Shown here one piece after another: positions 1,845-59,791 of a DNA stretch of 64,000 nucleotides (the stretch's first letter is position 1; the number at the start of each line of letters is the position of its first letter). A program made the position numbers and the translations under genes. Location of the stretch: NCBI GenBank assembly GCA_050014075.1, contig JBEKEA010000002.1, positions 26,860-90,859 on the forward strand, in the 5' to 3' direction. This stretch comes from Sedimentisphaerales bacterium. GTDB taxonomy: Bacteria; Planctomycetota; Phycisphaerae; Sedimentisphaerales; UBA12454. The notes below the pieces were generated by a model, which did not search any database, was not told the DNA's origin, and worked only from the letters and a program-made list of their open reading frames with translations.

Positions 1845-1912
1845 TAAGATTTGAAATTTGGAATTTCAGAGACGAACGACGAACCCCGTCATACGGTGAT
1901 GACGGGGCTAAC
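1845..1912. repeat. heptad run followed by ACGACGAAC-hairpin-GCTAAC module
   Basis: Reads aagattt gaaattt ggaattt cagagac gaacgac. Then a 9-bp stem CCCCGTCAT (1884-1892) pairs with ATGACGGGG (1899-1907), with a 3' flank CTAACC. A parallel module sits at 37737-37846. Confidence 0.75.
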
Positions 1913-1934
1913 CATTTAACGAAAACATAATACG

Positions 1935-2318
1935 CTACTGCGGTTCATCGCCCAATGGGATTTCGTCAATCCTGCATTCAGGGCATTTAGCAATCCTGAA
2001 AATGCCCCTCTGTCTTACAACGAGGCGTATGGGCTTGCCGTTCAAGTCAAAACAGCGCGCACAATACGGCGATGTGTCGAGTGTGCCATCAGCATTTCTT
2101 GCCCAATACACATTATTGCTAAAGAACAACCTGCCCGTTTCGACCGCATCGTATTTGGCAAGACGCTGCTCTGCCTCTTGCAGCCTTTGTTGCGTTTCCA
2201 AAAGCTTTTGTTGGAGTTCGAGGTCTTTGTTTATACTAGCTACTTTGGCAAGATTGGCGGGGAGTGTGATAAGTTGTTTGAGCCACGTCCAGAATGCATT
2301 AAACCAACCCAAAGCCAT
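1935..2318 (-). CDS. hypothetical protein: amphipathic N-terminus, coiled coil, C-terminal zinc ribbon
   Basis: ORF 1935-2339. The internal ATG at 2318 has GGAG 8 nt upstream. The middle segment is Q/E/L-rich (LELQQKLLETQQRLQEAEQRLAKY). The C-terminus has CARC...CPEC (CxxC x2). Confidence 0.5.
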   Translation of the reverse strand: MALGWFNAFWTWLKQLITLPANLAKVASINKDLELQQKLLETQQRLQEAEQRLAKYDAVETGRLFFSNNVYWARNADGTLDTSPYCARCFDLNGKPIRLVVRQRGIFRIAKCPECRIDEIPLGDEPQ

Positions 2319-2402
2319 AATTTGGTCTCCAAAACACACAGACTTATACGGAGAATATATAGGAAGTTTAGCTGTTTTGCAAGTAAAATCAAAAGTGAGA
2401 AG

Positions 2403-3017
2403 TTATCTTATCTTAAACTCATTTAGGTCTGTCTCTAACAGAAAACTTCTAAACGGTTCGTATTTAAAAGATTCGAAATTCAGCGGCGCGTATTCTTCAT
2501 CGCCGGACTGCAAAACAAATTTATCGTGCGCGTAAGCCGCTAAAATCCTGTGCTCGGGACAATCAGGGACATAGAAACAATATCGTTTGCCATTGCTATC
2601 GTTAAATTGTGCTTTGCAATAAGTATTGCCGCTTTGCTTTGTGCAAATGCAAACGCCTGCAAAACCACTATTATTTCTGGCTTTTACATTCAGGGCGTTT
2701 TGCCGGTATGTGGCAATTCTCAAGTTCTCTCTTCGATTATCGAATGTGTCGCCGTTAATGTGGTCAACAACCATTCCAGCCGGCGGATTGGTAATGAAAC
2801 GCGCAAGCGATACGAGCCTTGGAGGACTGGAGCCGAGAAGAATGGCAGGATAACTATTTCCATTTCCGGAAAAACGCAAGCCGATTATACCTTCGGCATA
2901 TTTGCTGCGTTGAGTAGGGCGAACATTGAAAATCTGATAATAAATATCAGGGTCAACTTTGACAGGCCGGCCTGCAATCGTGAAAGTCAGAAAATCGGTT
3001 GCGCTTTGTGTGGACAT
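2403..3017 (-). CDS. HNH endonuclease with AP2-like DNA-binding domain (homing or phage-type)
   Basis: Contains VVDHINGDTFDNRRENLRIATYRQN (HNH_3-type H-N-N core), followed by SGFAGVCICTKQSGNTYCKAQFNDSNGKRYCFYV, which resembles AP2/ERF-type strands. Confidence 0.7.
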   Translation of the reverse strand: MSTQSATDFLTFTIAGRPVKVDPDIYYQIFNVRPTQRSKYAEGIIGLRFSGNGNSYPAILLGSSPPRLVSLARFITNPPAGMVVDHINGDTFDNRRENLRIATYRQNALNVKARNNSGFAGVCICTKQSGNTYCKAQFNDSNGKRYCFYVPDCPEHRILAAYAHDKFVLQSGDEEYAPLNFESFKYEPFRSFLLETDLNEFKIR

Positions 3018-3242
3018 AGAAAAATAAGTGAAAAGTTAAAAGTTAAGGATATAGAAAAGGGAGATTTGATTAGTTTTAGAATTTACGGTTTGTCATTTAC
3101 AGTATCTTGGGAACTGTAAGCTGTTTAAAATAAGCATATTATGTGAATAAATGCCTTAAAATTCACTAATTATCAAACAACAAGGGTATTTTACTATATT
3201 TCTAACTAAAAATCAACTGAAAAATGAGATGAAAGGGATATA

Positions 3243-5093
3243 ATGGTGTTGTTGAAAAAACAATCAGATAAATATTGGTTTATTTTCATCTGTGCGGTAA
3301 TGACGATTGTTACGCTGGCGGTTTATTGGCAGATGCGCCAATATGATTTTATCAGCCTTGACGATTTCGGTTATGTAAGGGACAATCCGAATGTTCGCTA
3401 CGGATTCAGCTGGGCAAACGTCGGATGGGCGTTTAGCAGCGGTTACGCCAGTAACTGGCATCCATTGACATGGCTTAGTCATATGCTGGACTGCGAGCTT
3501 TACGGAACTAACGCCGGTATGCATCATCTGACTAATTTATTCCTGCATATCGCAAATGTTCTTTTGCTTTTTGCCGTTCTTAGGGCAATGACTGGTGCGC
3601 TTTGGCCAAGTGCCTTCGTTGCCGCGCTCTTCGCATTGCATCCGCTGCACGTCGAGTCGGTAGCGTGGATATCGGAACGCAAGGATGTTCTGAGCACTTT
3701 TTTCGCTCTGCTGACAATGGCGGCATATCTGCGATATGTCAAAAAACCGAGTATCGCACGATACCTGCCGGCGTTGCTGCTTTTTGCGTTAGGACTTATG
3801 GCAAAGCCTATGCTGGTAACTTTGCCGTTTGTGCTGCTTCTGCTGGATTATTGGCCTCTGGAGCGGTTTAAGCCGGCAAATATGAAAACGGCGAAGCGCC
3901 TTGTTTTTGAAAAAGGACCTTTTTTTATATTGTCGGCAGCATCGAGTATTATTACTATTTTTGTTCAAAAAATAATCACGGTCAACCAGCTTCCTTTAAA
4001 TCTTCGCATCGCCAATACATTCATATCTTATGTCAAGTATATCGAAAAGATGATTTGGCCGGTCAACCTGGCGATATTTTATCCGCATTCCGATATGAAA
4101 TTATCAATGCCGCAGGCTTTTGCTTGTGCTTTACTGCTGCTGGGAATATCTGCCGGAGTGATTTGCCTTGCCCGGAAACGAAAATACCTTTTGTTCGGCT
4201 GGCTGTGGTATCTTGGAACTCTGGTTCCGGTAATTGGTCTGGTCCAGGTGGGAGGTCTGGCTATGGCCGACCGTTATACATATATGCCGCTTACAGGGCT
4301 GTTTATCATTATTGCATGGGGAGCTAACGACCTGCTGACAGGATGGAAGTATAAAAAAATTATACATGGCATATCAGCGACTATGATTCTTTTGGCATTG
4401 GCTGTCTGGACATTTTTTCAGGCAGGATACTGGCGCAACAGCTTAACCCTTTTTGAACATGCTATCGCGGTTACTGAGGATAATTATTTGGCGCATAAAT
4501 GTTTGGCCGATGCCCTGCACGGCCAGGATAAAAATGAGGAGGCAATCGAACATTACCGCAAGGCGATTGAAATCGGCGAAAACTATGCATCTGCGTATGT
4601 CGGCCTGGGTTCAGTCCTGATTGATACTGGGAAAACCGACCAGGCAGAGGAGTATCTTGCAAAAGCGATACAACTCGACCCGGAGTCGGGCAAGGCGTAT
4701 GGCGAGCTGGGACGGGCTATGGCGAAAAAAGGTAAAATGAGTGAGGCGGCTGCTCTTTTCGAAAAGGCCGCTAGGCTTGAGCCTTACTGGATTGACCCGA
4801 TTAATGCTCTTGCGTGGAATCTTGCGACTTATAATGATGCAAAAATCCGCAATCCCGTCAGGGCGGTCCAGTTGGCAAAACGTGCATGCGAACTTACAAA
4901 TTATGAAAACCCCGCTATAATGGATACGATGGCGGCGGCTTATGCAGCGGCGGGCGACTTCAGCAAAGCGATAGAAACTTGTGAAAAAGCTCTGGCATTA
5001 TGCAAATCCGCTCAGCAGAGCGAGCTTAAAAGGGAAATTGAAAATCGGCTGATTTTGTATAAAGCCGGCAAACCTTATATCGAGGCACAGTGA
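3243..5093 (+). CDS. TMTC/DUF1736-type GT-C glycosyltransferase (putative protein O-mannosyltransferase) with C-terminal TPR repeats, paralog 1
   Basis: 616 aa and multi-TM. First-loop DD motif (FISLDDFGYV), the motif HPLHVESVAWISERKDVLSTFF shared by all four paralogs, and a TPR-rich C-terminus. Confidence 0.8.
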   Translation: MVLLKKQSDKYWFIFICAVMTIVTLAVYWQMRQYDFISLDDFGYVRDNPNVRYGFSWANVGWAFSSGYASNWHPLTWLSHMLDCELYGTNAGMHHLTNLFLHIANVLLLFAVLRAMTGALWPSAFVAALFALHPLHVESVAWISERKDVLSTFFALLTMAAYLRYVKKPSIARYLPALLLFALGLMAKPMLVTLPFVLLLLDYWPLERFKPANMKTAKRLVFEKGPFFILSAASSIITIFVQKIITVNQLPLNLRIANTFISYVKYIEKMIWPVNLAIFYPHSDMKLSMPQAFACALLLLGISAGVICLARKRKYLLFGWLWYLGTLVPVIGLVQVGGLAMADRYTYMPLTGLFIIIAWGANDLLTGWKYKKIIHGISATMILLALAVWTFFQAGYWRNSLTLFEHAIAVTEDNYLAHKCLADALHGQDKNEEAIEHYRKAIEIGENYASAYVGLGSVLIDTGKTDQAEEYLAKAIQLDPESGKAYGELGRAMAKKGKMSEAAALFEKAARLEPYWIDPINALAWNLATYNDAKIRNPVRAVQLAKRACELTNYENPAIMDTMAAAYAAAGDFSKAIETCEKALALCKSAQQSELKREIENRLILYKAGKPYIEAQ

Positions 5094-5112
5094 AAGGTAT
5101 TTTGTAAAACAG

Positions 5113-6768
5113 ATGTATAAAACTACAAACAAATATCATATTCACCTGATTTATATATTGCTGACCATAGTTACTTTTATCGCTTTTGAACCGATAATGA
5201 GCAATGGATTCATAAGCTTCGATGATGATGCGTATATTTATCACAACAGCAATATTACTACCGGCCTGACGGGTAAAAATATCGGTTGGGCATTTACGAA
5301 TATTCATGCCAACAATTACCATCCGTTAACTTCGCTGTCGCATATGCTTGATTGTCAGTTTTTCAAGCTGGACGCCGGCGCTCATCATTCAATCAATTTG
5401 CTTTTACATATAGCCAATACGTTATTATTGTTTACGGTTTTGAGCAGAATGACAAAAAGAGCCTGGGCGAGCGCATTTGTCGCGGCACTTTTTGCGCTGC
5501 ATCCGCTTCACGTGGAATCTGTTGCCTGGGCGTCGGAGCGAAAAGACGTGCTCAGCACATTTTTCCTGATGCTCACTCTTCTGGCTTATGCAGGTTATGT
5601 AAAACGGCCGGGGGCAGGACGGTATTTATTAACGCTGGTTTTGTTCGTATTGGGTCTTTTGAGCAAGCAAATGCTTGTAACGGTGCCGTTTATTCTGCTG
5701 TTATTGGATTACTGGCCGCTTGAACGATTCAAGAAAACTAAACTCAGCAGTCTGATACTTGAGAAAATTCCATTTTTGGTTTTATCGGCGGCTTTGGGTA
5801 TTGTTACCGTTATCATTCAGCACAAAATGGGGCTGCTGAAGACCTTTTCAAACTATCCGTTTCAATGGCGAATCGAAAATGCCATTGTGTCATATATTAT
5901 ATATATCGAAAAAATGTTTTGGCCTGTCAACCTGGCAATATTTTATCCGCATCCGAAGGGCGACATCACTTTTTGGCAAGTTGCGGGGTCGCTGCTTATC
6001 CTTTTATTTATAACATTTCTGGCTATATGGAAAATACGCCGATGGCCTTATGTCGCTGTCGGCTGGTTATGGTTTTTGGTGACCCTCGTGCCGGTTATAG
6101 GAATAGTGCAAGTGGGCCTGCAGGGCTGGGCAGATAGATATACTTATGTTCCTTATATCGGGCTTTTTATTATTGCCTGGGTTGCCTGCGACCTGCCGGC
6201 TGGGGTTCAATATCAAAAAACGATTTTTTCGTTATCTGCCTGCATTATTCTTTTATCGCTGGGCGCTAAGACCTTTATTCAGACTCTGTATTGGCAAAAT
6301 AACATTATGTTATATTCTCATGCCGCGGAAGTTGTTGAAAATAACTGGTGGGCGTATAATTTTATGGGAAAAGCGTTAGCTTCTCAGGATGAATTTAATG
6401 AAGCGATTGTGCTGTTCGAAAAGTCTTTGGCAATCTACCCGCAAAATATCACAGTAAATTATGAAATGGGCAAAGCATTTTTGGGGGCGGGCGACGCGAA
6501 CGATGCTGTAAAATTGTATCAGCAGATGCTTGGTCCGCTGCCGGATAATCCAAATGAGCCGGTCAAAGTTGATGATAATCCTGTTCTTAAAGATTTGTAT
6601 GTAAACGCGAATATTAATCTTGCAATCGGATTATCGCGGCAGGGAAATCTTAAAGAATCGGCCAGGCGTTTCGAGGAAGCTTTGCGGGTTGCGCCTGACG
6701 CAGAGGCGGCACGCAAGGGGCTTGAAGATTTAAAGAAGCAGGCTAAGGATAATTCTTTATTGCCTTGA
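5113..6768 (+). CDS. TMTC/DUF1736-type GT-C glycosyltransferase with TPR repeats, paralog 2
   Basis: 551 aa with the same architecture (FISFDDDAYI; HPLHVESVAWASERKDVLSTFF). Its TGA stop (6766-6768) lies inside the TTGACA -35 box of the duplicated polA promoter. Confidence 0.8.
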   Translation: MYKTTNKYHIHLIYILLTIVTFIAFEPIMSNGFISFDDDAYIYHNSNITTGLTGKNIGWAFTNIHANNYHPLTSLSHMLDCQFFKLDAGAHHSINLLLHIANTLLLFTVLSRMTKRAWASAFVAALFALHPLHVESVAWASERKDVLSTFFLMLTLLAYAGYVKRPGAGRYLLTLVLFVLGLLSKQMLVTVPFILLLLDYWPLERFKKTKLSSLILEKIPFLVLSAALGIVTVIIQHKMGLLKTFSNYPFQWRIENAIVSYIIYIEKMFWPVNLAIFYPHPKGDITFWQVAGSLLILLFITFLAIWKIRRWPYVAVGWLWFLVTLVPVIGIVQVGLQGWADRYTYVPYIGLFIIAWVACDLPAGVQYQKTIFSLSACIILLSLGAKTFIQTLYWQNNIMLYSHAAEVVENNWWAYNFMGKALASQDEFNEAIVLFEKSLAIYPQNITVNYEMGKAFLGAGDANDAVKLYQQMLGPLPDNPNEPVKVDDNPVLKDLYVNANINLAIGLSRQGNLKESARRFEEALRVAPDAEAARKGLEDLKKQAKDNSLLP

Positions 6769-6793
6769 CATTACGCCATGCAATAAATAAATT
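6765..6793 (+). promoter_or_regulatory. duplicated polA-type promoter driving paralog 3
   Basis: TTGACA (6765-6770), 17 nt, TAAATT (6788-6793), then 7 nt to the ATG at 6801. It is near-identical in layout and sequence to the polA promoter at 10180-10208. Confidence 0.55.
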
Positions 6794-6800
6794 ATCAGCT

Positions 6801-8411
6801 ATGGCAAAAAATTTCTACAGAATTGACGGCCGCACACGTATCATTTTAATTTGTCTTGTCCTAACGTCAATGGTGTTAGCAGTTTTTGCCCAGGTACGCA
6901 GTCACGAATTTATTAATTACGACGACCCAGCCTACGTTACCGGAAATAATGCTGTCCTGAATGGTTTGTCCGCTGACAGTATCCTCTGGGCCTTTACGAC
7001 AGGTTGCTTCGGCAATTGGAATCCGCTGACGTGGATTTCATATATGCTGGACCGGCAGTTCTTCGGCTCAGGTCCCGCAGGATTTCACCTCACTAATCTT
7101 ATTCTCCATATCGCCAATGCCTTGATTCTATTTATTGTCTTAAAACAAATGACAAATGCGGTTTGGCAAAGCGCCTTCGTAGCGGCCCTGTTTGCGATTC
7201 ATCCTCTTCACGTCGAATCCGTCGCCTGGATTTCAGGCCGCAAGGATGTTCTGAGTACCTTTTTCGCTCTGCTGACAATGGCCGCATATCTGCGATATGT
7301 CAAAAAACCGGGTATCGCACGATACCTGCCGGCGCTGCTGCTTTTTGCGTTAGGCCTTATGGCAAAGCCAATGATTGTTACTTTGCCTTTTGCTTTTCTT
7401 CTGCTGGACTATTGGCCGCTGAATCGTATCAGAAATTTTAGCGGACAAAATATTTATCGTTTGATTTTGGAAAAAGTTCCCTTCCTTGTTTTATCCGTCG
7501 CTGCAGGTGTCGTCACCTATTATACACAAAAAAATATTGGAGCACTGCCGTCTTTTGCTGGGATGCCTCTGAAGTATCGTATTTTAAATGCCTTAATATC
7601 TTATGCAAAATATATTGGAAAAATGTTTATTCCGACCGGTCTCGCTCCGTTTTATCCTCACCCCCGTGAAGACGTATCGATTTTATACGCTCTGATTTCC
7701 GCCATTATCTTATTGGCTATAACTATTGTTGTTCTTTATTTCGTCAAAAATCGTCGGTATCTCCTTACGGGCTGGTTCTGGTATCTCGGAACGCTGATTC
7801 CGGTTCTCGGTATCATTCAGATTGGTTCGCATGCTATGGCCGATAGATATACTTATGTTCCACTGATTGGTTTATTTATAATGGTATCATTTGGCGGTGC
7901 TGAATTATTCGGCAAACTGCGATACGGCATCCGGATTTCCGCCGTCTCGGCTGCCGTTATAATTTTTGCACTGATGATTTGCACTTACAGGCAGGTGGGC
8001 TTTTGGCGCAACAGCATTACACTTTTTGAACACACCGCACAAGTTACTCAAAATAATTATTTGGCATACAGCAACCTTTCAAATGCGCTTGGTCAAAAAG
8101 GAGATTATGATGCCGCTATAAAAAACGGACTTGAGTCGCTGCGTATTCGGCCGAATTACGACACGCCGTGCTATAATCTTGGAATGGCTTATTATAGTAA
8201 AGGTGACACGGAAAAGGCAATTTACTACTGGACAGAGGCTCTAAAAATCAATCCGAAGTTTCCTGAGGCCAATTACGCTCTTGCGACAGCATTACTTAAT
8301 AAGAATGAGGTCGCACAGGCGATAAAATATCTTCAGGAGGAATTAAAAATAAATCCGAACCACACCGGCGCTAAAAAACTTCTCTCTAAACTAATATCCG
8401 CTACTCGGTAG
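6801..8411 (+). CDS. TMTC/DUF1736-type GT-C glycosyltransferase with TPR repeats, paralog 3 (N-terminus derived from polA 5' end)
   Basis: The ORF track begins at a TTG at 6765. The ATG at 6801 is preferred because 6757-6845 aligns with the polA promoter and first codons (MAKNFYRIDG vs MAKTLYIIDG). Family motif present: HPLHVESVAWISGRKDVLSTFF. Confidence 0.8.
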   Translation: MAKNFYRIDGRTRIILICLVLTSMVLAVFAQVRSHEFINYDDPAYVTGNNAVLNGLSADSILWAFTTGCFGNWNPLTWISYMLDRQFFGSGPAGFHLTNLILHIANALILFIVLKQMTNAVWQSAFVAALFAIHPLHVESVAWISGRKDVLSTFFALLTMAAYLRYVKKPGIARYLPALLLFALGLMAKPMIVTLPFAFLLLDYWPLNRIRNFSGQNIYRLILEKVPFLVLSVAAGVVTYYTQKNIGALPSFAGMPLKYRILNALISYAKYIGKMFIPTGLAPFYPHPREDVSILYALISAIILLAITIVVLYFVKNRRYLLTGWFWYLGTLIPVLGIIQIGSHAMADRYTYVPLIGLFIMVSFGGAELFGKLRYGIRISAVSAAVIIFALMICTYRQVGFWRNSITLFEHTAQVTQNNYLAYSNLSNALGQKGDYDAAIKNGLESLRIRPNYDTPCYNLGMAYYSKGDTEKAIYYWTEALKINPKFPEANYALATALLNKNEVAQAIKYLQEELKINPNHTGAKKLLSKLISATR

Positions 8412-8462
8412 AGATATATCTTCTTGACAGGAACGTTCTGCGGGGACTACTATATTGTAATT

Positions 8463-8576
8463 ATGGCAAAAACTTTATACATAATTGATGGTCACGCGCA
8501 CATTTACGCGGCATATTATGCGCCAATGAGTCAAAAACTTTCCAGCCCAATCGGCGAACCAAAAATTATCCCTTAA
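8463..8576 (+). pseudogene. orphan 5' remnant of polA (37 codons)
   Basis: Translates as MAKTLYIIDGHAHIYAAYYAPMSQKLSSPIGEPKIIP*. The first 29 residues are identical to PolA (10217...), and the DNA is about 90 percent identical by eye over about 90 nt. Its TAA stop ends 3 nt before the paralog-4 ATG. Confidence 0.85.
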
Positions 8577-8579
8577 ATA

Positions 8580-10136
8580 ATGAATAAAATATCAAGCAAA
8601 TATTATGTCCCTTTAATCTGCATTGCCCTGGCATTTATAAACCTGGCGGTTTACTTGCAAGTCCTCAATCACGATTTCATCGACTTTGATGATGACCTGT
8701 ATGTTACTAAAAATACCAATGTGCAATCCGGCCTGACCTTAAAAGACATAAAATGGGCCTTCACAACGAACCAGGCGTATAATTGGCATCCATTGACTTG
8801 GATATCGCATATGCTGGATTGCCAGCTTTATGGTTTAAATCCTGCCGGCCATCACTTCACAAATGTAATTTTTCACATAGCGAATACCTTATTTTTATTT
8901 CTGGTCTTCAAACGTATGACCGGTAACTTATGGCAAAGTGCTTTTGTTGCAGCCCTGTTTTCTCTGCACCCGCTTCATGTTGAATCAGTTGCCTGGGTCT
9001 CGGAGCGAAAAGACGTCCTCAGCACCTTTTTCTTGTTGCTCACTATATGGTTTTACATACGCTACACTCATCACCGACGGCTCGCTGATTACCTGCTGGT
9101 TATGCTTACCTTAGCGCTAGGCCTAATGGCCAAACAAATGCTGGTAACACTACCGTTTGTTCTGCTTCTATTAGACTATTGGCCTCTGCAGCGATTTACA
9201 TGGCCGTTAAAACAAAAAAAACATAAAGGTACATCTGCAACAACTTCACTTTCTCGCTGCTTCGTGGAGAAAGTGCCCTTTTTGGCTTTGTCTTTTATCG
9301 CAAGTCTAATCGTTCTTTATGTCCAATCAAAAGCTACGCTTGTAAGAAGCACAATTCAGATGCCAATCGTTTTTCGCATTGCAAATGCAATTCTTGCTTA
9401 TACAAAATATATCACAGAGATGTTCTGGCCCTTTCATTTGGGGATTCTTTATCCATACCCACAGACCAATCCTCAACTGTGGCAGGTTTTGACCGCTGGC
9501 TTACTGCTTCTGTGCATCACTGCCATAGTGTTCCGTTTGTCCCGCAACCGTCGCTGGCTCATAGTTGGATGGCTCTGGTACCTTGGAACCCTCGTTCCCG
9601 TAATCGGACTGGTGCAGGTCGGACTTCAGTCAATGGCTGACCGCTACACCTATGTCCCTTTCATTGGTCTATTCATCATCATTACATGGGGCGCCGCCGA
9701 ACTTATTGCAAAACTAAAATACAAGAATATTATCTTTGCAGCAGGTGCCGGGGTGGTGCTCCTGGTTTTATCGGTACTCACTTGGCTGCAACTGTCATAC
9801 TGGGAAAATAGCATTACATTGCTTGAGCATACCGTAGCTGTCACTGCCAACAATGATATTATACACTACAACCTGGGCATACTGCTGATAGAGCAAGGCA
9901 AGACTGACCAGGCCATTGAACATTGGCTTGAAGCCGTAAGAATCAGGCCTGAACAGCCGACAATTCACAATAATCTTGCGATTTTATTTGCTAAGCAGGG
10001 CAAAATCGAGGAGGCAATCCAACAATATCGCCAGGTGCTCAAATACAGACCTAACGATACCGTCGCATATAACCGCCTTAAAGCCCTCTTGGCCGCTCAA
10101 GAGAAATCTGCTGCCGAAGACAAAACTCCGAAATAA
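8580..10136 (+). CDS. TMTC/DUF1736-type GT-C glycosyltransferase with TPR repeats, paralog 4
   Basis: 518 aa, with FIDFDDDLYV, HPLHVESVAWVSERKDVLSTFF and a C-terminal TPR region. No SD is visible upstream; it abuts the polA-remnant ORF. Confidence 0.8.
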   Translation: MNKISSKYYVPLICIALAFINLAVYLQVLNHDFIDFDDDLYVTKNTNVQSGLTLKDIKWAFTTNQAYNWHPLTWISHMLDCQLYGLNPAGHHFTNVIFHIANTLFLFLVFKRMTGNLWQSAFVAALFSLHPLHVESVAWVSERKDVLSTFFLLLTIWFYIRYTHHRRLADYLLVMLTLALGLMAKQMLVTLPFVLLLLDYWPLQRFTWPLKQKKHKGTSATTSLSRCFVEKVPFLALSFIASLIVLYVQSKATLVRSTIQMPIVFRIANAILAYTKYITEMFWPFHLGILYPYPQTNPQLWQVLTAGLLLLCITAIVFRLSRNRRWLIVGWLWYLGTLVPVIGLVQVGLQSMADRYTYVPFIGLFIIITWGAAELIAKLKYKNIIFAAGAGVVLLVLSVLTWLQLSYWENSITLLEHTVAVTANNDIIHYNLGILLIEQGKTDQAIEHWLEAVRIRPEQPTIHNNLAILFAKQGKIEEAIQQYRQVLKYRPNDTVAYNRLKALLAAQEKSAAEDKTPK

Positions 10137-10179
10137 GTCAGTTAAGTTACACTTTGCAGGCAGCCCTTTGCTTATTACC

Positions 10180-10208: not shown

Positions 10209-10216
10209 TATCAGCT

Positions 10217-12931: not shown

Positions 12932-12938
12932 GGCTCTA

Positions 12939-14191: not shown

Positions 14192-14198
14192 ATAAATT

Positions 14199-15455: not shown

Positions 15456-15487
15456 CTATTAACTATCAACTACCAACTATCAACTAT
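15456..15487. repeat. heptad tandem element, TAYCAAC unit
   Basis: Reads tattaac tatcaac taccaac tatcaac tat, starting 13 nt after the MFS stop. Confidence 0.85.
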
Positions 15488-15519
15488 AAGAAGTTTCACC
15501 CGCGAGGGTGAAACTTCTT
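15488..15519. terminator. perfect 14-bp-stem palindrome, candidate bidirectional terminator overlapping the xerD stop
   Basis: AAGAAGTTTCACCC (15488-15501), loop GCGA, GGGTGAAACTTCTT (15506-15519). It lies between the convergent MFS and xerD genes and encodes the last xerD codons (KKFHPRG). Confidence 0.6.
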
Positions 15520-16431
15520 ATGAATACTCCGCAGTCTTTCCATGTCAACGTGAGTATATATCTGCGTTGTCGCAATATCGACGTGCCCGAGCATCTCCTG
15601 CACGCTGCGCAAATCCGCTCCGCCGCTTAAAAGATGAGTCGCAAAGCAATGCCGAAGAGTATGCGTCGTCATCTGCTTTGGTAATCCCGCCCGGCAGGCG
15701 TATTTTTTTACAATTCGCCAGAGTTCAATTCTGCTAAGTGCTCTGCCCGTTCGCGAAAGGAACAGGGCGTCGCCGCTGCAAGGCTTGGCCAGTTTCCCTC
15801 GAAATTGCTCGATATATTGTTCAATAGCCCCAATCGCGGCATGGTTGAGAGGAATTACCCGTTCCTTTTTACCTTTGCCCAGGCATCGGACATATCCGAT
15901 TTTAAGATTCGCATCGCCAATTTTCAGCCCCGCGACTTCGCTCGCCCTTGCGCCGGTAGCGTAAAGTAATTCGAGAAGGGCACGGTCTCTGAAATAATAA
16001 GGCTCTTTCTCATCCGGACAGTCCATCAGTTTTGTAACCTGGTCTTTGCTGCAAACAATTGGAAGTTTCTGCCAAAGCTTTGGGCTTTCAAGAAATACTG
16101 TTAAATCGTCCTTGATGTGTCCCATCATTTTGCAGTAGCGCAGAAACATTTTCAGCGCGACTACCGAGCGGTTAATCGAGGCTTCTGCTTTATTTTGGCG
16201 GGCAAGGACCTTTGCGTAATCATAAAACTCAGCTGTAGTAATCTTATCAGGCTTCTTAATCCCTTTCGAAAGGCAAAATATGACAAATTCCCGCAGGTCT
16301 CTGCCATAGCCGAGGATGGTGTTTTCGCTAAGGCCGGCTTCGACGGTCAGGTAATTTAGGAATGCCAGCACCGTCTTTCCAAACGGCTCAGCATCTAAAA
16401 CTGTATTAAGATTCTGCACTTGTAACGACAT
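15496..16431 (-). CDS. xerD: tyrosine site-specific recombinase, XerD/XerC-like
   Basis: 311 aa with an N-terminal SAM-like core-binding domain (FLNYLTVEAGLSENTILGYGRDLREF) and a catalytic region (HTLRHCFATHLLSGGADLRSVQEMLGHVDIATTQIYTHV). Confidence 0.85.
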   Translation of the reverse strand: MSLQVQNLNTVLDAEPFGKTVLAFLNYLTVEAGLSENTILGYGRDLREFVIFCLSKGIKKPDKITTAEFYDYAKVLARQNKAEASINRSVVALKMFLRYCKMMGHIKDDLTVFLESPKLWQKLPIVCSKDQVTKLMDCPDEKEPYYFRDRALLELLYATGARASEVAGLKIGDANLKIGYVRCLGKGKKERVIPLNHAAIGAIEQYIEQFRGKLAKPCSGDALFLSRTGRALSRIELWRIVKKYACRAGLPKQMTTHTLRHCFATHLLSGGADLRSVQEMLGHVDIATTQIYTHVDMERLRSIHKKFHPRG

Positions 16432-34689: not shown

Positions 34690-34985
34690 AGTTAGGTCGA
34701 AAAACCCTTCGACTGCGCTCAGGGCAGGCGACGTAAAAAATGACGTAAGTCCTTTGTTTTCGAGGGGGTTTTTTATGTAAGTGTTTGCAGGGACAAGTTT
34801 TAGTGGCGTAATCCGCTAAGGGATGCCTCACGGCAGCCATCTCGACGATATAGATTTTGATTTTTTTGCCCTGTTTTGGAATGATTTACCCCTGTTTTTT
34901 GATGATTTTGGTGTTTTTTTAAATACAGTTATCGGTTATCAGATCATCAAGTTATTGGGAAACGGTTATCGGTTATCAGCACGAA
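34690..34985. repeat. mosaic repeat block B ending in a heptad element
   Basis: Shares TTCGACTGCGCTCAGGGCAGG, GTAAGTCCTTTG, GGGACAAGTTTTAGT, GATTTTGATTTTTTTGCCCTGTTTT and TTTTGGTGTTTTTTTAAAT with blocks A and C. Region 34927-34985 holds GTTATCN heptads, followed by GCGGGGGGATTTTTTATGG, which is also at 55029-55046. Confidence 0.75.
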
Positions 34986-37736: not shown

Positions 37737-37846
37737 GAAATCCGAAATACGAATATCGAAATCCGAAACAAATCAGAAATTCAAAATTTCAATGTTCAAA
37801 ACACACCAAAAACGACGAACCCCCACTAAAAGTGGGGGCTAAACAG
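37737..37846. repeat. heptad run (GAAATMC units) followed by ACGACGAAC-hairpin-GCTAAAC module
   Basis: Reads gaaatcc gaaatac gaatatc gaaatcc gaaacaa atcagaa attcaaa atttcaa tgttcaa. Then AACGACGAA, stem CCCCCACT (37820-37827) pairing with AGTGGGGG (37831-38), then CTAAAC. Confidence 0.8.
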
Positions 37847-37904
37847 GCGGGATAATCGATTATTTAATAATTGACAAATTATGGGGGATTGTTAGGATTA
37901 TAAT

Positions 37905-37942
37905 CAGATTACAGATAACAGATTATAGATTATAGTTAATAG
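37905..37942. repeat. heptad element, CAGATWA unit
   Basis: Reads cagatta cagataa cagatta tagatta tagttaa tag, just upstream of thrS. Confidence 0.75.
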
Positions 37943-37982
37943 AAAACTGAAATATTATTTAGGTTGAAAGACCAGAATATCG

Positions 37983-39902
37983 ATGGCGAAAGTAACACTG
38001 CCTGACGGCAAAGTATTGGATGTTCAAGACGGCCTGACAATCGGTCAGGTAGCGGAAAAAATAGGCAAGGGACTGGCCCGCGACGCAGTTGCCGGCAAAA
38101 TAAACGGCCAAACGGTCGATTTAAACACACCAATTAAAACAGATGTTTCCCTTTCAATTATAACAGTCAACAAACCTGACGGGCTGGAGATAATCCGACA
38201 TAGCTGCGCTCACGTTATGGCTGAGGCGATTTGCAGTATCTGGCCGAAGGCACAGCTCGTTTACGGGCCGACGGTCGAGGATGGGTTCTATTACGATATC
38301 GACCTTGACGACCCGATTCGGCCGGAAGATTTTGAAAAAATCGAAAAGAAAATGGCTGAAATAGCCGAGAAGAATGTGCCGATTACCCGGCGGGAATTGA
38401 GCAGAGGCGAAGCAGTCAAGCACGTCGCAGGCAATAAATATAAAATCGATAATATAAACCGCGCGACGGACGATACGATAAGTTTCTATTCGCACGGCGG
38501 TGGGTTCGAGGATTTGTGCAGGGGGCCGCACGTTCCGAGCACGGGCAAAATCGGATTCTTTAAGATTATGTCGGTGTCGGGGGCATACTTTCACGGCGAC
38601 CAGGCACAGAAAATGCTGCAGCGGGTTTACGGCACCGCGTGGGCGACGAAAAAAGAACTCGATGAATATCTGCACAGGCTCGAAGAGGCGAAGAAACGCG
38701 ACCATCGGTTCCTCGGCAAGCAACTCGATATTTACAGCGTGCACGACGATATCGGGCCGGGGCTGATACTTTGGCATCAGAATGGGTCGCTGATTCGGCA
38801 TATAATCGAGACGTTCTGGAAAGAAGAACATCTTAAACGCGGATACGATCTTATTTACACGCCGCACATTGCGACGGAAAAGATTTATCAGAAAAGCGGA
38901 CATCTGGAAAAATACTCAGAGATGATGTATGCACCGATGAAAATCGACGAGATGAATTATTATCTCAAGCCGATGAACTGTCCGGGCCATTATATGATTT
39001 ATAATAACAGTCCGCGGAGCTATCGCGATTTGCCGATGCGGTTCTGCGAATTGGGAATGGTGTATCGTTATGAGCCGAGCGGGACGCTGCACGGGATGCT
39101 GCGGGTTCGCGGGTTTACGCAGGACGATGCTCATACTTTCTGCACGCCGGGGCAGCTTGGGCAGGAGCTTGACCTGATTCTTGAACTGATGAATTTTATG
39201 ATGGTAACGTTCGGATATACTTATAAGGCGTATCTTGCGACTCGGCCGGCGAAATTTCTCGGCACGGAAGAGGAATGGGACCGGGCGACGAAAGAATTGC
39301 GGCTGGCGATGGAGAGACGCGGGCTGAAGTATGAAGTCGATGAAGGCGGCGGAGTGTTTTACGCGCCGAAGATTGATATTAAGCTGATTGATTCGCTGGG
39401 GCGCGAATGGCAGGGGCCGACACATCAGGTTGATTTGCAGGCGGCAAAGAGATTCGATATTCGATATGTCGGCGAAGATAATGCGCTGCACGAGCCGGTG
39501 ATTATTCATCGGACGGTGCTGGGCAGTATGGAGCGGTTCATCGGCGGATTGATTGAGCATTACGGCGGCAATTTCCCGCTGTGGCTGTCGCCGGAGCAGA
39601 TGAGGGTGCTGACTATCAGCGAAAAGTCAAACGATTACGCGCAAAAGCTGCACCAGAGATTGAAAGCTGAAGGATTGCGGTGCGGGATTGATATGTCCGA
39701 CGAAAAAGTCGGAGCGAAAATTATCCGGGCGCATAATGCAAAGACACCTTATATGCTTGTAGTCGGACCGAAAGAGGCAGAAACCCAAAGCGTAAGTGTC
39801 AGGATTCGCGGAGGCAACGAGAGCAAGAGCGTCAGCGTAGAGCAATTTGTCGCCGCGGCAAAAGAGAAAATTACTTCTAAAACACAGGATATAAATTTAT
39901 AA
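37983..39902 (+). CDS. thrS: threonyl-tRNA synthetase
   Basis: 639 aa with an N-terminal TGS domain, an editing-domain HSCAHVMA motif, a class II core and a C-terminal anticodon-binding domain. Confidence 0.97.
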   Translation: MAKVTLPDGKVLDVQDGLTIGQVAEKIGKGLARDAVAGKINGQTVDLNTPIKTDVSLSIITVNKPDGLEIIRHSCAHVMAEAICSIWPKAQLVYGPTVEDGFYYDIDLDDPIRPEDFEKIEKKMAEIAEKNVPITRRELSRGEAVKHVAGNKYKIDNINRATDDTISFYSHGGGFEDLCRGPHVPSTGKIGFFKIMSVSGAYFHGDQAQKMLQRVYGTAWATKKELDEYLHRLEEAKKRDHRFLGKQLDIYSVHDDIGPGLILWHQNGSLIRHIIETFWKEEHLKRGYDLIYTPHIATEKIYQKSGHLEKYSEMMYAPMKIDEMNYYLKPMNCPGHYMIYNNSPRSYRDLPMRFCELGMVYRYEPSGTLHGMLRVRGFTQDDAHTFCTPGQLGQELDLILELMNFMMVTFGYTYKAYLATRPAKFLGTEEEWDRATKELRLAMERRGLKYEVDEGGGVFYAPKIDIKLIDSLGREWQGPTHQVDLQAAKRFDIRYVGEDNALHEPVIIHRTVLGSMERFIGGLIEHYGGNFPLWLSPEQMRVLTISEKSNDYAQKLHQRLKAEGLRCGIDMSDEKVGAKIIRAHNAKTPYMLVVGPKEAETQSVSVRIRGGNESKSVSVEQFVAAAKEKITSKTQDINL

Positions 39903-47842: not shown

Positions 47843-47865
47843 TTTAGTACTCCTTCACACAAATT

Positions 47866-53988: not shown

Positions 53989-53997
53989 TTGACTGGA

Positions 53998-54026
53998 GTT
54001 GATAGTTGGTAGTTGATAGTCATAAG
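53998..54026. repeat. heptad tandem element (GTTGATA, inverted orientation of TATCAAC)
   Basis: Reads gttgata gttggta gttgata gtcataag, 10 nt after the dacB stop. Confidence 0.85.
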
Positions 54027-55073
54027 TCGTTTGTTTACGTTGAAAAAACGTAAAAAGGTGCATTTCATAAGTCCTTTATTTGCGTACTGTTTTTTTGAAA
54101 AATGGTTTGTAAGTTTTTAGCGGGACAAGTTTTAGTAAAGATTTTGAAAAATTTTGAAAATTTTGGATTATTTTGAACGAATTTTGATTTTTTTGCCATG
54201 TTTTTATACGATTTTTCACTTTTTTTAATCACTGATTACGCAGATATAAAAGATATGTTTTCACCACAGAGAGCACCGAGGCCACAGAGATTTTTAGACG
54301 CTGATCCGCCTCCGTCAAGGACTATGGTGGACAAGTTTCGCAGATTACGTTCACCACGAAGGGCGGAAGAAACACGAAGACAATATTAATTTCACCACCG
54401 AGCCACAGAGCTCATCTGCCGTCGCTACGAGCTATGGCGGACAGGCAGAACGCACAGAGGCGATATTGCTTTAAGACATCCCTACGGGATTTAATAATTC
54501 TAAAATCAAACCCTCCCTGAAGCCGACCCATTCGACTACGCTCAGGGTAGGGCTTCGTCCGGGTTTATATTTTGTAATTATTGCCCCTAAGGGGCTTTTG
54601 TCTTAAAGCAATAGAACATTTTCACTATGCTGTATTGCAGTATACTGTAATACAGTATACTGCATACGAGTATAGAGATTTAAGATTTTTGATACTGGGA
54701 GTTTTTGATACTAAAGATTTTTTGAAGAAAGGGGAATTAGTGCAGGCGTCCGCCGTCGTCCCTAAGGGCTTCCGTCTTCGCCAAAAGGCTACGAACGGAC
54801 AGGATGACGAGATCTTCGCTTCGCTCCGAGGCGGATAAAAGTCGGTGGTGGTGGTTTTTGGTGTTGTAGGGGGCCCCCTTGCGGGGGTTTCCGCTGCGCT
54901 CCAACGCTGTGGCTCCGACGAAAAATTCTTTTTATAAAAGTGTTTTACGTAGCCACTAAGTCACCAAGACACGAAGATAATTTTAAATTCTAAATTTTTA
55001 ATGTTGAATTGCGGAGCCACCGAAAGCGGGGGAATTTTTTATGCGGCAAAAAGGAAATTTAAAATAGGTGACT
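54027..55073. repeat. gene-free mosaic repeat block C (about 1 kb)
   Basis: Region 54066-54154 matches block A (reverse complement) and partly block B. It has multiple CACCACAGAG/CACCGAGCCACAGAG units, four CCG(Y)C..TCGC...CTA(T/C)GG(Y)GGACAGG-type hairpin modules, GACTACGCTCAGGGTAGG, GAGGCGGATAAAAG and GAAAGCGGGGGAATTTTTTATG, plus a perfect palindrome at 54636-54664. Confidence 0.8.
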
Positions 55074-55099
55074 GTCCCTAGTTTTTCCTATTTTTCCAA

Positions 55100-55318
55100 T
55101 TAAGCCAATCCGTCTTTGAACTTTGGTGCAAGTACGTTCCCTCCTGGGAGGATAGTTTTATCCTCTCTTTGGATGGATCCTGGTTTGATAGCATCTCTCG
55201 GAATTTTCTTAACCTCGTGAGAGTATGGCTCGATGATCTCATAGTTCCCGTTTTTGTCAACGCGAATGTCATCTGCGCGACGGGTTTGACCGGCAATATT
55301 TAAACGAAACCTTGACAT
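55100..55318 (-). CDS. 72-aa orphan protein with strong expression signals
   Basis: MSRFRLNIAGQTRRADDIRVDKNGNYEIIEPYSHEVKKIPRD... with SD AAGAGGTG 5 nt upstream and a consensus promoter at 55363-55391. I recognise no family. Confidence 0.6.
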   Translation of the reverse strand: MSRFRLNIAGQTRRADDIRVDKNGNYEIIEPYSHEVKKIPRDAIKPGSIQREDKTILPGGNVLAPKFKDGLA

Positions 55319-55362
55319 AATTACACCTCTTTTCGAATAAAAATCTGTTTATTCTGGTGTAA

Positions 55363-55391
55363 ATTATAGGTAACTGTCATATAGTAGTCAA
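55363..55391 (-). promoter_or_regulatory. near-consensus sigma70 promoter for the 72-aa gene
   Basis: The minus strand reads TTGACT (55386-55391), 17 nt, TATAAT (55363-55368), about 45 nt upstream of the ATG at 55318. Confidence 0.6.
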
Positions 55392-55433
55392 GTCAAAAAA
55401 CATACAAAATAAATAAACGGCCACTATTTATTC

Positions 55434-55457
55434 GTCCCCTATTTATTCCTATTTTTT
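55434..55457. repeat. GTCCC-CTATTTATT-CCTATTTT boundary element (left of R-M pair)
   Basis: GTCCCCTATTTATTCCTATTTTTT. There is a direct copy at 55074-55095, an inverted copy at 57793-57822, and a related copy at 63961-63994. Confidence 0.65.
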
Positions 55458-55503
55458 CTTGAGATTTTAAAACAAAGATGCTGGATGACTTTCCCCAAAA
55501 ATA

Positions 55504-57671: not shown

Positions 57672-57792
57672 AGGCCTACTTTAAGATAAATTGAAATTTA
57701 AAACCGCCAAAAATAGCAAACTAATCTTATCAGAATAATGACAGACAGGCAATAAAAAAGAACAGCACTAATTCAATTTATTTTACCGTAGT

Positions 57793-57870
57793 AAAATAGG
57801 AGTAAATAAATAGGTGCGGGACAGGCAAACCCTGCCAAGGTCCGCCTGAGGCGGATAAATGTTGGCAGGG
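57793..57870. repeat. inverted boundary element plus nested hairpin module ending GGGCTAACC
   Basis: AAAATAGG (57793-57800), AATAAATAG (57805-57813) and GGGAC (57818-57822) mirror the left element. Stem CCCTGCCAA (57830-38) pairs with TTGGCAGGG (57862-70) and encloses TCCGCCTGAGGCGGATAAA. Confidence 0.65.
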
Positions 57871-57879
57871 CTAACCGAT

Positions 57880-58650
57880 TTATATCGGAAGTGTAATTAT
57901 AAACTTTGTCCCTTGATTAATCTTTGAATCTACTTCGATAGTGCCGTTGTGGGAATTAATTATTTCCTTGCAGAAAACAAGGCCCAATCCAGAACCAACT
58001 CTTGCAGCGGGCCCCTCAGGGGTTTTTGTTGTAAAGAACGGCTCAAATAACTTGTCCATATTCTCCTGCTCAATTCCGCAGCCTGTATCGCCGACCTCTA
58101 TGATAACTGTATCCTGCTGCCTGCGAGCGGTTATCTGGAGCGTTCCGCCTAATGGCATCATCGCTTCACGAGCGTTTAAAATCAGGTTCATTAAGACCTG
58201 CTGCATCTGAACCGGCACAGCAAGAATATCAAGCTCTTCCGGTATTTCCATTTTGACTTTAAGACTGTCTTTTTCGAATTCCCTGCCGATACAGGAAAAG
58301 ACCTCTTCGATGAGCTGTTTCAATCTGCATTGGCGTTTTTCGAGGGCTTCGCCGTTGACGACGGCAAGCATACTTTCGAGAATTTCAGATGCCCTTGCGC
58401 TGTTGTGCACGGTCTTTTGCAGGGCTTTTTGAGTTAGCGGGAGGTCGGTTGGATTATTTAACGCAACCTGAGCGTAATTGCCCAGCGGCATAAGAATATT
58501 ATTAATTTCGTGAGCTACAATCGCACTGATAGTGCCCAGATTTGCCAGGGCCTGGAGCTTTGCCAGGCGTGCTTCAAGCTCTTTGTTCTGCTGTAGTTGC
58601 AGGTTAATCTCTTTGTTGAGAGAACGGCGCTTTTCAATCAATTGAGTCAT
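57880..58650 (-). CDS. cytoplasmic sensor histidine kinase (HisKA + HATPase_c, no TM or sensor domain)
   Basis: N-terminal coiled coil, H-box SAIVAHEINNIL, N-box LNLILNAREAM, G1 DTGCGI and G2 GSGLGL. Confidence 0.85.
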   Translation of the reverse strand: MTQLIEKRRSLNKEINLQLQQNKELEARLAKLQALANLGTISAIVAHEINNILMPLGNYAQVALNNPTDLPLTQKALQKTVHNSARASEILESMLAVVNGEALEKRQCRLKQLIEEVFSCIGREFEKDSLKVKMEIPEELDILAVPVQMQQVLMNLILNAREAMMPLGGTLQITARRQQDTVIIEVGDTGCGIEQENMDKLFEPFFTTKTPEGPAARVGSGLGLVFCKEIINSHNGTIEVDSKINQGTKFIITLPI

Positions 58651-58705
58651 TTACATGCTCCGAAGCAGCAAAGAAATAAGGGAAGTAAGGAATTAATGAT
58701 TAAAA

Positions 58706-58743
58706 TTGAACGTCCAACATTGAACATCGAACATCCAACTTTG
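58706..58743. repeat. heptad element, TGAACAY family
   Basis: TTGAACGTCCAACATTGAACATCGAACATCCAACTTTG is a copy of 37187-37225. The palindrome GCCTTTGGCAAAGGC follows at 58760-58774. Confidence 0.85.
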
Positions 58744-58902
58744 TTTGAATGAGGAATTTGCCTTTGGCAAAGGCTTCAAATGAGTATATTCCCTACATTC
58801 ACAATTCATTACTGCCGGCATTTTTTGCTATGAAAAAAACAATATTAGGATAAAATTACAATATTATATTTATCGACATTTAGGGCGTTTTTCCTTAAAG
58901 AT

Positions 58903-59157
58903 ATGGATAATAAAGCCGTTTTAGACGAGTTGCTTGAGTTACTTGAGAAAAATAATGTTAAAATACGTAAAGATTCGCTGGGCGGGGGAGGGTCGGGATT
59001 GTGCAAAATAAAAGGCGAATACCTGTTCTTTCTGGATATGGATTCGAGCTCTTATGAAGTTGCGATAAGCTGCGCAAAAGCTGTGAATGAAATTATAGAT
59101 ATTGAAACGATTTATTTAAAGCCGGAAGTAAGGGAGTTCCTTGAGGGAAATAAGTAA
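58903..59157 (+). CDS. hypothetical 84-aa protein
   Basis: MDNKAVLDELLELLEKNNVKIRKDSLGGGGSGLCKIKGEYLFFLD.... Lies divergent from the histidine kinase and upstream of the response regulator. No recognised family. Confidence 0.45.
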   Translation: MDNKAVLDELLELLEKNNVKIRKDSLGGGGSGLCKIKGEYLFFLDMDSSSYEVAISCAKAVNEIIDIETIYLKPEVREFLEGNK

Positions 59158-59183
59158 CTCAGTTATCAGTTATCGGTTATCAG
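59158..59183. repeat. heptad tandem element, GTTATCN family
   Basis: Reads ctcagttatc agttatc ggttatc ag, starting right after the stop codon at 59155-59157. Confidence 0.8.
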
Positions 59184-59225
59184 AAAATCAGGTTTGAAAT
59201 TGAAGATTAACGGAGTGAACAAACG

Positions 59226-59708
59226 ATGGCGAAGAATACGGCAAAAAAAACGAATAGCGAAGAAGAAAACGTCAAGACTGCAATAATACTCGTCGTTGAC
59301 GACAATGAGCAGAATCTTGAACTGCTGCAGGCATATCTCGAAGACCTTCAGTGCCGAACAATTCCCGCAAAGGACGGCGTAGAGGCGCTTGAGATAATCA
59401 AGAAATCAAAACCTGATTTGGTGCTGCTGGATGTTATGATGCCGAAGATGAGCGGGTTCGAGGTTTGCAGGAGAATTAAAAACAATCCGCAGACGACGGA
59501 TTTGCCGGTGATTATGGTTACAGCCCTTAATGAGCTTGGCGATATCGAAAGGGCGATTGAGTCGGGAACAGACGATTTTTTAAGCAAGCCCGTAAATAAA
59601 TTGGAGCTTATTACCCGCGTAAAAACAATGCTCAAACTCAAGCATCTTTCCGACCGACTCGAAAGAACCCTTGCATATCTGAGCGAAATAGAAAAACAAG
59701 CGAAATAA
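59226..59708 (+). CDS. single-domain response regulator (receiver plus short C-terminal coiled coil)
   Basis: Contains ILVVDDNEQNLELL, DLVLLDVMMPKMSGFEV and VIMVTA...KP. There is no output domain. Confidence 0.88.
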   Translation: MAKNTAKKTNSEEENVKTAIILVVDDNEQNLELLQAYLEDLQCRTIPAKDGVEALEIIKKSKPDLVLLDVMMPKMSGFEVCRRIKNNPQTTDLPVIMVTALNELGDIERAIESGTDDFLSKPVNKLELITRVKTMLKLKHLSDRLERTLAYLSEIEKQAK

Positions 59709-59720
59709 ACTAAATTCGAA

Positions 59721-59791
59721 GGGCAGACACACAGGTCTGCCCCTACATATCCCGGCAAACACATAGGACATAGGTTTGCCCCTACGTATCC
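59721..59791. repeat. two tandem variable-stem hairpins each followed by CCCTACRTATCC
   Basis: GGGCAGAC (59721-28) pairs with GTCTGCCC (59735-42), then CTACATATCC. GGCAAAC (59754-60) pairs with GTTTGCC (59774-80), then CCTACGTATCC. Confidence 0.8.

Follow-up and report, generated by a model that had tools for sequence, protein, structure and literature searches.

The 64-kb window analysed here, a stretch of 64,000 nt from a Sedimentisphaerales bacterium (contig JBEKEA010000002.1, positions 26,860 to 90,859), carries five short hairpins, three of which (class 1) have different stems between similar flanks, and two of which (class 2) stand in tandem. The class 1 hairpins are very probably dispersed copies of a Sedimentisphaerales family of repetitive extragenic palindromes (REPs) that belongs to a Y1 transposase, and the explanation taken as a whole, namely that of a REP system with a REP-associated tyrosine transposase (RAYT), is given a probability of roughly 0.8. 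A REP is a short hairpin that carries an unpaired tetranucleotide tag at one of its ends; REP families differ in stem and loop, are located mainly downstream of genes, and are associated with RAYT genes (PMC3733652). REP/RAYT is a known kind of element and not a new phenomenon; the CTAA tag of class 1 is unusual, and the phylum is little studied. No mention of REPs or RAYTs in Sedimentisphaera was found in the literature.

Class 1 hairpins in the window

All five hairpins that a sequence-only reading of the window had listed (three of class 1, two of class 2) were recovered at their coordinates. The three class 1 copies are given below, numbered from the first letter of the window.

1876..1913, + strand: class 1 copy 1; 5' tail ACGACGAA (1876-1883), 9-bp stem CCCCGTCAT (1884-1892) / ATGACGGGG (1899-1907), loop ACGGTG, 3' tag CTAACC
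37812..37845, + strand: class 1 copy 2; 5' tail ACGACGAA (37812-37819), 8-bp stem CCCCCACT/AGTGGGGG (37820-37838), loop AAA, 3' tag CTAAAC
57830..57876, + strand: class 1 copy 3, composite, without the 5' tail in the form seen in copies 1 and 2; outer stem CCCTGCCAA (57830-57838) / TTGGCAGGG (57862-57870), inner hairpin TCCGCC-TGA-GGCGGA (57841-57855) followed by TAAATG, 3' tag CTAACC

All five hairpins of the window are intergenic and lie just past a gene end. Copy 1 is located 113 nt downstream of the stop codon of a WG-repeat gene (708-1763, + strand), and copy 2 lies between an open reading frame (ORF) of 114 aa and thrS, 145 nt before the thrS start at 37983 and directly upstream of the conserved thrS promoter region. 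The tag of copy 3 ends 3 nt from the stop codon of a histidine-kinase gene (57880-57882, - strand), so that this copy would lie, in reverse orientation, in the 3' untranslated region of that gene. Folding as single-stranded DNA reproduced the drawn stems of all five, with free energies of -5.6 to -16.4 kcal/mol and z-scores of -2.3 to -5.4; stem lengths in the window are 7-9 bp, in keeping with the short, GC-rich palindromes of about 20-40 nt by which REPs are defined.

The association of hairpins and flanks in the window exceeds chance when the two are taken together: the pattern AACCC-N(10-40)-GGGCTAA occurs three times against an expectation of 0.18, a count reached in 0 of 100 shuffles. 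Within the 64 kb there are just two occurrences of the 9-mer ACGACGAAC, each of them at a hairpin's 5' foot (expected 0.40; two occurrences were reached in 4 of 100 shuffles). Flank words searched alone with mismatches allowed were not enriched in the window, so the signal resides in hairpin and tag together. A relaxed search of the window for further or degenerate copies returned only noise.

The class 1 family

A DNA scan of genome contigs with the pattern ACGACGAACCCC-N(6-36)-GGGGCTAA yielded 24 loci, about 17 of which came from metagenome-assembled genomes (MAGs) of Planctomycetota. The window stems recur in these hairpin-selected loci, where tandem hairpin arrays with linkers such as GCTAAATAATGACGAAC also occur. 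The stem of copy 1 is present in two loci (L015, L016) and flanks transposase genes, described below, in four more (L052, L053, L058, L069). The hairpin of copy 2, CCCCCACT-AAA-AGTGGGGG, was found unchanged in L022 and beside a transposase gene in L079 and L082, and with one loop base different in L007. The composite design of copy 3 recurs in L015, L016, and L021, with an outer stem around GTCC...GGAT followed by (T)AAATG. All three stem types of the window were found beside Y1 transposase genes elsewhere. The stems had been taken to be unrelated sequences; instead, the 168 hairpins collected have 47 distinct 5' arms, a limited set of recurrent sub-families that are present in many genomes.

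The class 1 unit consists of AA, a CCC...GGG hairpin of 6-9 bp, and unpaired CTAA[A/C][C/T], which places TTAG at the 5' foot on the other strand. In the family-wide flank consensus, A occupies position -1 in 95% and position -2 in 74% of the copies, the stem begins with CCC in 100%, and the 3' side reads CTAA[A/C][C/T]. Of the flanks described as conserved by the sequence-only reading, the 3' (G)CTAAMC therefore stands as a family tag and the 5' ACGACGAAC is lineage-specific, with only AA before CCC being general. The ACGACGAA tail of the window copies is also present on the hairpins of one transposase clade (L005, L020, L026-L030). Throughout class 1 the tag CTAA/TTAG is invariant. In the 459 kb of transposase-selected loci described in the next section, 81% of GGG+CTAA words mark the foot of a perfect hairpin of 6 bp or more, compared with about 10% of GGG+NNNN words, and over all loci 199 of 227 hairpins (88%) are outside long ORFs, though such ORFs make up 73% of the DNA.

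Covariation was assessed on 44 distinct sequences picked by CCC-N16-GGGCTAA alone, a pattern that leaves the six inner pairs unconstrained. Among stem cells 98% were paired (86% when shuffled), changes on both sides were found at all six free pairs, and the covariation score was 0.378 against 0.149 for shuffled sequences, with none of 500 shuffles reaching the observed value; the signal was lost when the 3' partner was slid by one to three columns. Covariation of this strength indicates a constraint on structure, as had been proposed from the window alone, and the hairpins are not simple duplicates, again in agreement with that proposal.

A second repeat, GATTCTTCGCTKCGCTCAGAATGAC, an imperfect palindrome with arms ATTCT...AGAAT, was present in eight copies in about 860 kb of fetched loci (L025 5919, L108 9828, L113 2899 and 4096, L094 4615, L054 1138, L074 2277, and L103 3958). 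Four of the eight copies (L025, L108, and both in L113) lie directly 5' of a class 1 REP. The window contains only partial matches to this repeat, at 34703-34722 and 59790-59803.

A Y1 transposase beside the hairpins

The sequence-only reading had suggested asking whether the flanks match the target sites of a nuclease or recombinase, and this proved productive, in that genes for Y1 transposases flanked by the hairpins were found in related genomes, though not in the window. A small ORF adjoining the hairpins was noticed first in L021 and L005, and tblastn located it in four hairpin-selected loci (L005, L008, L020, L021). All four ORFs match Pfam Y1_Tnp (PF01797) above the gathering score, with a best E-value of 3e-10. 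A profile search returned about 3,600 homologues, many of which carry the JGI label 'REP element-mobilizing transposase RayT'. The protein is about 150 aa long and has the HUH motif NH[VI]H at residues 84-87, in which H85 is conserved in 100% and H87 in 99% of sequences; Tyr143, conserved in 98%, belongs to the motif Y[VI]xxHN in a C-terminal helix (residues 134-149 in the model), and the N-terminal segment (YMxTWTTYGTWLQGD) is strongly conserved. A sequence search of the PDB gave only a weak match to IS200 (E = 0.23), and a fold search was therefore needed. For this the AlphaFold model, which has a pLDDT of 92.8, was compared using Foldseek. The top PDB match was 4ER8_A, E. coli TnpAREP bound to a REP (E = 8.9e-6, TM 0.57), and all 30 fold matches with E <= 1e-3 belong to this family, the 29 after 4ER8 being IS200/IS605 TnpA chains.

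A reverse test was made on 80 metagenome loci (459 kb) picked by the transposase protein alone, in which hairpins ending in GG and followed by CTAA were scored. Hairpins reached 8.1 per kb over the 100 bp on the upstream side of the gene and 11.2 per kb over the same length on the downstream side; farther than 1-2 kb from the gene the figure was 0.02-0.04 per kb, which amounts to a concentration of about 300-fold around the transposase gene, upstream positions included. At least one hairpin lies within 300 bp of the gene in 76 of the 80 loci, and in 56 of them both flanks carry hairpins. Typically, a forward hairpin lies 45-70 bp ahead of the gene and an inverted hairpin follows the stop codon at 7-14 bp, in many cases succeeded by a further forward copy. 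CCCTGCCAW, one of the stem types of the window, flanks the transposase in many loci, often in alternating orientation with CCCCGTCAT (e.g. L069), and in one clade (L005, L020, L026-L030) the gene has identical hairpins on its two sides that point the same way. Hairpin type follows the enzyme: where the transposases of two loci are more than 90% identical, 97% of the locus pairs have an identical hairpin arm in common, and where their identity is below 60%, only 1% do.

Two observations from these collections may be recorded here. Loci L085 (5495-5538) and L089 (1617-1636), which are near-identical transposase loci, have the same hairpin CCCCTCAA...TTGAGGGG with a loop of 4 nt in one and 28 nt in the other, an insertion into the loop. 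Two 8-kb loci from acidobacterial MAGs (Pyrinomonadaceae, Terriglobia) contain CCCCGGGC...GCCCGGGG hairpins followed by CTAA (L012 3045; L024 2606, 2812, 3383, and 3453) and no transposase gene within them.

Proposed mechanism

By analogy with E. coli TnpAREP, which processes single-stranded REPs and co-evolves with them (PMC8266576), and with the TnpA of IS200/IS605, the HUH/Y1 transposase of about 150 aa would bind the hairpin folded in single-stranded DNA. The tetranucleotide at the hairpin foot would position cleavage and strand transfer, and the enzyme would thereby copy or move hairpins into intergenic DNA. Clades of the transposase use different stem and loop sequences with the same tag and CCC/GGG foot, which accounts for hairpins with the same flanks and differing yet paired stems. 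Hairpins inserted after genes may also stabilise mRNA 3' ends.

Orthologous sites in related genomes

The thrS gene of the window is 100% identical to that of a Sedimentisphaerales MAG (Planctomycetota), and the loci L106-L110 provided relatives with thrS 97%, 95%, 88%, and 85% identical to that of the window. The thrS promoter and leader are conserved in these relatives from CGATT..TTTAATAATTGACA onward (window 37850-37985). Copy 2 is absent upstream of thrS in L106, L107, and L109, and L108 has at its site a different, degenerate hairpin followed by GGCTAAAT / GGCTAAATAGGCGG. This empty-site comparison is only partly informative because gene content upstream of thrS differs among the relatives. 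An insertion in this region of about 23 nt of GATTATA-like repeats, around 37915-37945, is peculiar to the window.

For copy 3, relatives were available with TPR proteins 98% (L111), 87% (L115), and 80% (L113) identical to that of the window. The orthologue in L111 has an identical outer stem and tag and an unrelated 5' flank, and its inner hairpin is TCCCC-TAC-GGGGA followed by TTAAAATG, compared with TCCGCC-TGA-GGCGGA and TAAATG in the window. L115 (1-95) has at this site CCCTGC-CACAGGT-GCAGGG and CCCCGC-CACAGGT-GCGGGG, then GTTAAAC and not CTAAAC, and L113 has CCCCGCC-TCGAGC-GGCGGGG followed by CTAAAT. The variant GTTAAAC of L115 is similar to what follows the inner hairpin in composite copies.

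Copies 2 and 3 are placed exactly at breaks in gene order relative to the closest relatives, with the tag side conserved and the 5' side unrelated. On this comparison of sequences the two sites are hot spots of hairpin replacement, and their turnover is consistent with repeated insertion or conversion by a hairpin-specific enzyme. This comes nearest to the templated hairpin replacement proposed earlier, and replacement at a fixed site is seen in the exchanged inner hairpin of L111.

A non-coding block of the window at 59836-59955, upstream of the TPR gene that starts at 60001, is highly conserved (GTCGCTAAACACGTCATAG ... GGGGGTAAATCGATTAAGACAGGCCATAGGGGGGTCGATAC) in the relatives whose TPR protein is 80-98% identical. 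Rfam gave no match for the block, and a leader or a small RNA are possible identities.

The class 2 pair

The two class 2 hairpins follow a response-regulator gene (59226-59708), class 2a starting 13 nt after its stop codon.

59721..59752, + strand: class 2a; hairpin GGGCAGAC-ACACAG-GTCTGCCC (59721-59742), tag CTACATATCC
59754..59791, + strand: class 2b; hairpin GGCAAAC-(13-nt loop)-GTTTGCC (59754-59780), tag (C)CTACGTATCC

On the - strand class 2a reads GGATATGTAG-GGGCAGAC... and class 2b reads GGATACGTAG-GGGCAAAC..., with GTAG at the 5' foot of both, and 2b differs from 2a by one compensatory pair change, G-C to A-T. The leading reading of the pair, held tentatively and with a probability of about one half, is a REP-like insertion of the classical GTAG-tagged type in head-to-tail arrangement. 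A somewhat unlikely alternative, which concerns class 2 only, is that a gene-end hairpin belonging to the response-regulator gene was duplicated locally in tandem, in which case GTAG would be coincidental and the pair unrelated to REP/RAYT. Duplication is favoured by the presence of just two copies, adjacent and with a period of about 39 nt. The tag CCCTACRTATCC was found only in these two tandem copies of the window, with no occurrence in L001-L105, and a scan for hairpins plus CTAC returned nothing like class 2 in L111-L115. In addition, the orthologous spacer of L111, L112, L115, and L113 contains at the same place a short hairpin, AGAC-TGCTG-GTCT, with a T-rich tail, the AGAC/GTCT core of which is in common with class 2a. 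Against duplication, the class 2 block is specific to the lineage of the window, an inserted or replaced segment of about 100 nt that is absent from the spacer of all four of these relatives, including L111 with its 98%-identical neighbouring protein; the other-strand tag is exactly GTAG at the hairpin foot; GTAG hairpin doublets exist in related genomes; and the TTCGAA on the 5' side of 2a is similar to the CGAA tail seen in class 1.

The GTAG doublets are inverted pairs of the REPIN type (L055 157-208, L069 1604-1648, L085 851-904) with the form GGTAG-GGTGGGC...GCCCACC, spacer, GGTGTGC...GCACACC-CTAC. Related genomes therefore hold at least two REP superfamilies. No obvious transposase was seen among the ORFs beside the doublets in these three loci, judged by ORF size and position only.

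Comparison with known systems

The hairpins were compared with the REP/RAYT 'REPtrons' of Enterobacteria, Pseudomonas, and Stenotrophomonas (PMC2817692, PMC3479197, PMC8266576). Both are GC-rich extragenic hairpins with an unpaired tetranucleotide at the foot, several stem/loop sub-families per genome, and clusters of alternating orientation (here e.g. L069), and in both a Y1 HUH gene is flanked by usually inverted hairpins whose type co-varies with the enzyme. Unlike REPtrons, class 1 has the tag CTAA (TTAG) and not GT[AG]G, a stem foot that is always CCC/GGG, and common same-orientation arrays; the enzyme is small (about 150 aa), has the YMxTWTTYGTWLQGD N-terminal extension, scores below the NCBIfam RAYT cutoff, and has the Tyr motif Y[VI]xxHN in place of YIxxNP. 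The described superfamilies, whose tags are GT[AG]G (GTAG being the classical one) or CGTC (Di Nocera et al. 2013, PMC3733652), likewise consist of tagged palindromes with variable stems located mostly downstream of genes. Class 2 shares the GTAG foot on its - strand with the first of them and differs in being a head-to-tail pair.

Among published groups the nearest is class 3 TnpAY1, known from Planctomycetes, Acidobacteria, and Proteobacteria (Quentin et al. 2018, PMC6006769), in which the Y1 genes of Planctomycetes and Acidobacteria are flanked by atypical hairpins that lack GTAG. Points in common are the phylum, the NHVH motif (here NHVH/NHIH) and a W followed by T or A (here W[STA]), extended conservation at the N-terminus, the profile being about 155 aa long, and non-GTAG hairpins that can be numerous in a genome; class 3 occurs in Acidobacteria, and acidobacterial loci in the contig scan also carry CTAA-followed hairpins. 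The published Tyr motif of class 3 is YV[VI][AENY]EQ, whereas here it is Y[VI]xxHN, and the published CnGA at the 5' hairpin foot was not seen here. Because of these two mismatches, seen on comparison with the published motifs, the enzyme was not filed as class 3. Members of IS200/IS605 have the same fold and catalytic motifs, and the hairpins of the clade L005, L020, and L026-L030 are like left and right IS ends. In contrast to IS200/IS605, no tnpB is present here, most clades have inverted flanking hairpins, and solo hairpins are also scattered well away from transposase genes, the window being a case in point.

Weighing of explanations

Several results weigh against the REP/RAYT explanation. 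No Y1 transposase was detected in the 64-kb window by tblastn or six-frame hmmsearch, so that the window holds passive copies only and the cognate gene must be elsewhere in the genome or lost. REPs are expected in high copy number, and the window has three class 1 and two class 2 copies in 64 kb; some 100 kb of DNA from close relatives contains almost no class 1 hairpins. As for the tag of class 1, it is neither GTAG nor CGTC. The NCBIfam model REP_Tyr_transpos gave E = 2.6e-8 but 33.9 bits against a cutoff of 80, for which reason the enzyme is regarded as a divergent relative of RAYTs and not as an equivalog, and cleavage and transposition by this enzyme family are predictions by analogy only. 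For class 2, no further copies and no link to a transposase were found in the loci examined, and head-to-tail REP pairs are reported to be rare and negligible in frequency (PMC3733652).

If the hairpins were mainly transcription terminators or mRNA 3'-end stabilisers of this lineage, with the flanks as terminator context, their positions just downstream of gene ends would be expected, and REPs are known to influence mRNA stability (PMC3733652). On the - strand copy 2 is also terminator-like, the hairpin being followed by CGTCGTTTTT. However, that site was the only one flagged by a consensus scan for intrinsic terminators, and no - strand gene lies upstream of it, thrS being on the + strand; the scan did not support intrinsic termination. 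No T-run follows any of the five hairpins on the + strand, as the sequence-only reading had already remarked, and orientation is mixed, copies 1 and 2 running along their neighbouring genes and copy 3 against its own. A terminator role also leaves unexplained the invariant CTAA tag, the concentration of hairpins around the transposase gene, upstream of it as well, and the correspondence of hairpin type with transposase clade, and it is considered very unlikely. The strong stem covariation and the conserved two-helix design of the composite form could also be those of small structured RNAs or cis-regulatory motifs acting as RNA, a reading to which hardly any weight is given. A single-stranded DNA hairpin bound and read by an HUH enzyme accounts for the covariation as well as an RNA would, and it speaks against a function as RNA that the hairpins face either way with respect to genes, form arrays, and flank one particular gene family on both sides. 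A known RNA family was rejected, as Rfam at gathering thresholds identified only tRNA in the window and nothing at E <= 1 around the hairpins.

Integron attC sites were likewise rejected. An attC site is an imperfect palindrome that ends in complementary core sites, RYYYAAC and GTTRRRY, and bounds gene cassettes; the flanks here, (A)CGAA and CTAAMC, are not mutually complementary, and neither a cassette array nor an integrase was seen on inspection.

Within the REP/RAYT explanation, the enzyme of about 150 aa and the CTAA/TTAG hairpins might constitute an undescribed subclass that, with the roughly 3,600 homologues, is widespread in Sedimentisphaerales, has a new guide tetranucleotide, and is still active; this reading is judged unlikely. 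On it, the enzyme would rebuild hairpins at fixed sites and insert one hairpin into the loop of another. The reading is raised because of the composite copy 3 and the exchanged inner hairpin in L111, where the neighbouring protein is 98% identical.

Other features of the window

The region 3243-10136 contains four tandem ORFs of 518-616 aa that are apparent paralogues, with near-identical segments at 3730-3758 and 7291-7319 and at 3800-3826 and 7361-7387. A perfect 16-bp stem, ATAAGAAGTTTCACCC-GCGA-GGGTGAAACTTCTTAT (15486-15521), lies between convergent ORFs; it has no REP tag and, from its sequence and position, looks like a bidirectional gene-end hairpin. An AT-rich region of 1.5 kb (53990-55500, GC about 0.39) is free of ORFs of at least 100 aa and includes a perfect 13-bp palindrome, TGCAGTATACTGT-AAT-ACAGTATACTGCA, at 54636-54664.

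Significance

An odd sequence feature is explained here by a known mechanism, and no new class of biology is opened. On strong statistical evidence, the range of REP/RAYT now takes in a tag that is neither GTAG nor CGTC. The 80 transposase loci and 47 stem types make up a natural set of matched enzymes and hairpins for the study of how Y1 HUH enzymes read hairpins. The location of the hairpins at gene-order breaks and their quick turnover in the lineage matter for genome comparison, and for the annotation of Planctomycetota MAGs they provide a simple signature: AA, a CCC...GGG hairpin, and CTAA[A/C][C/T].

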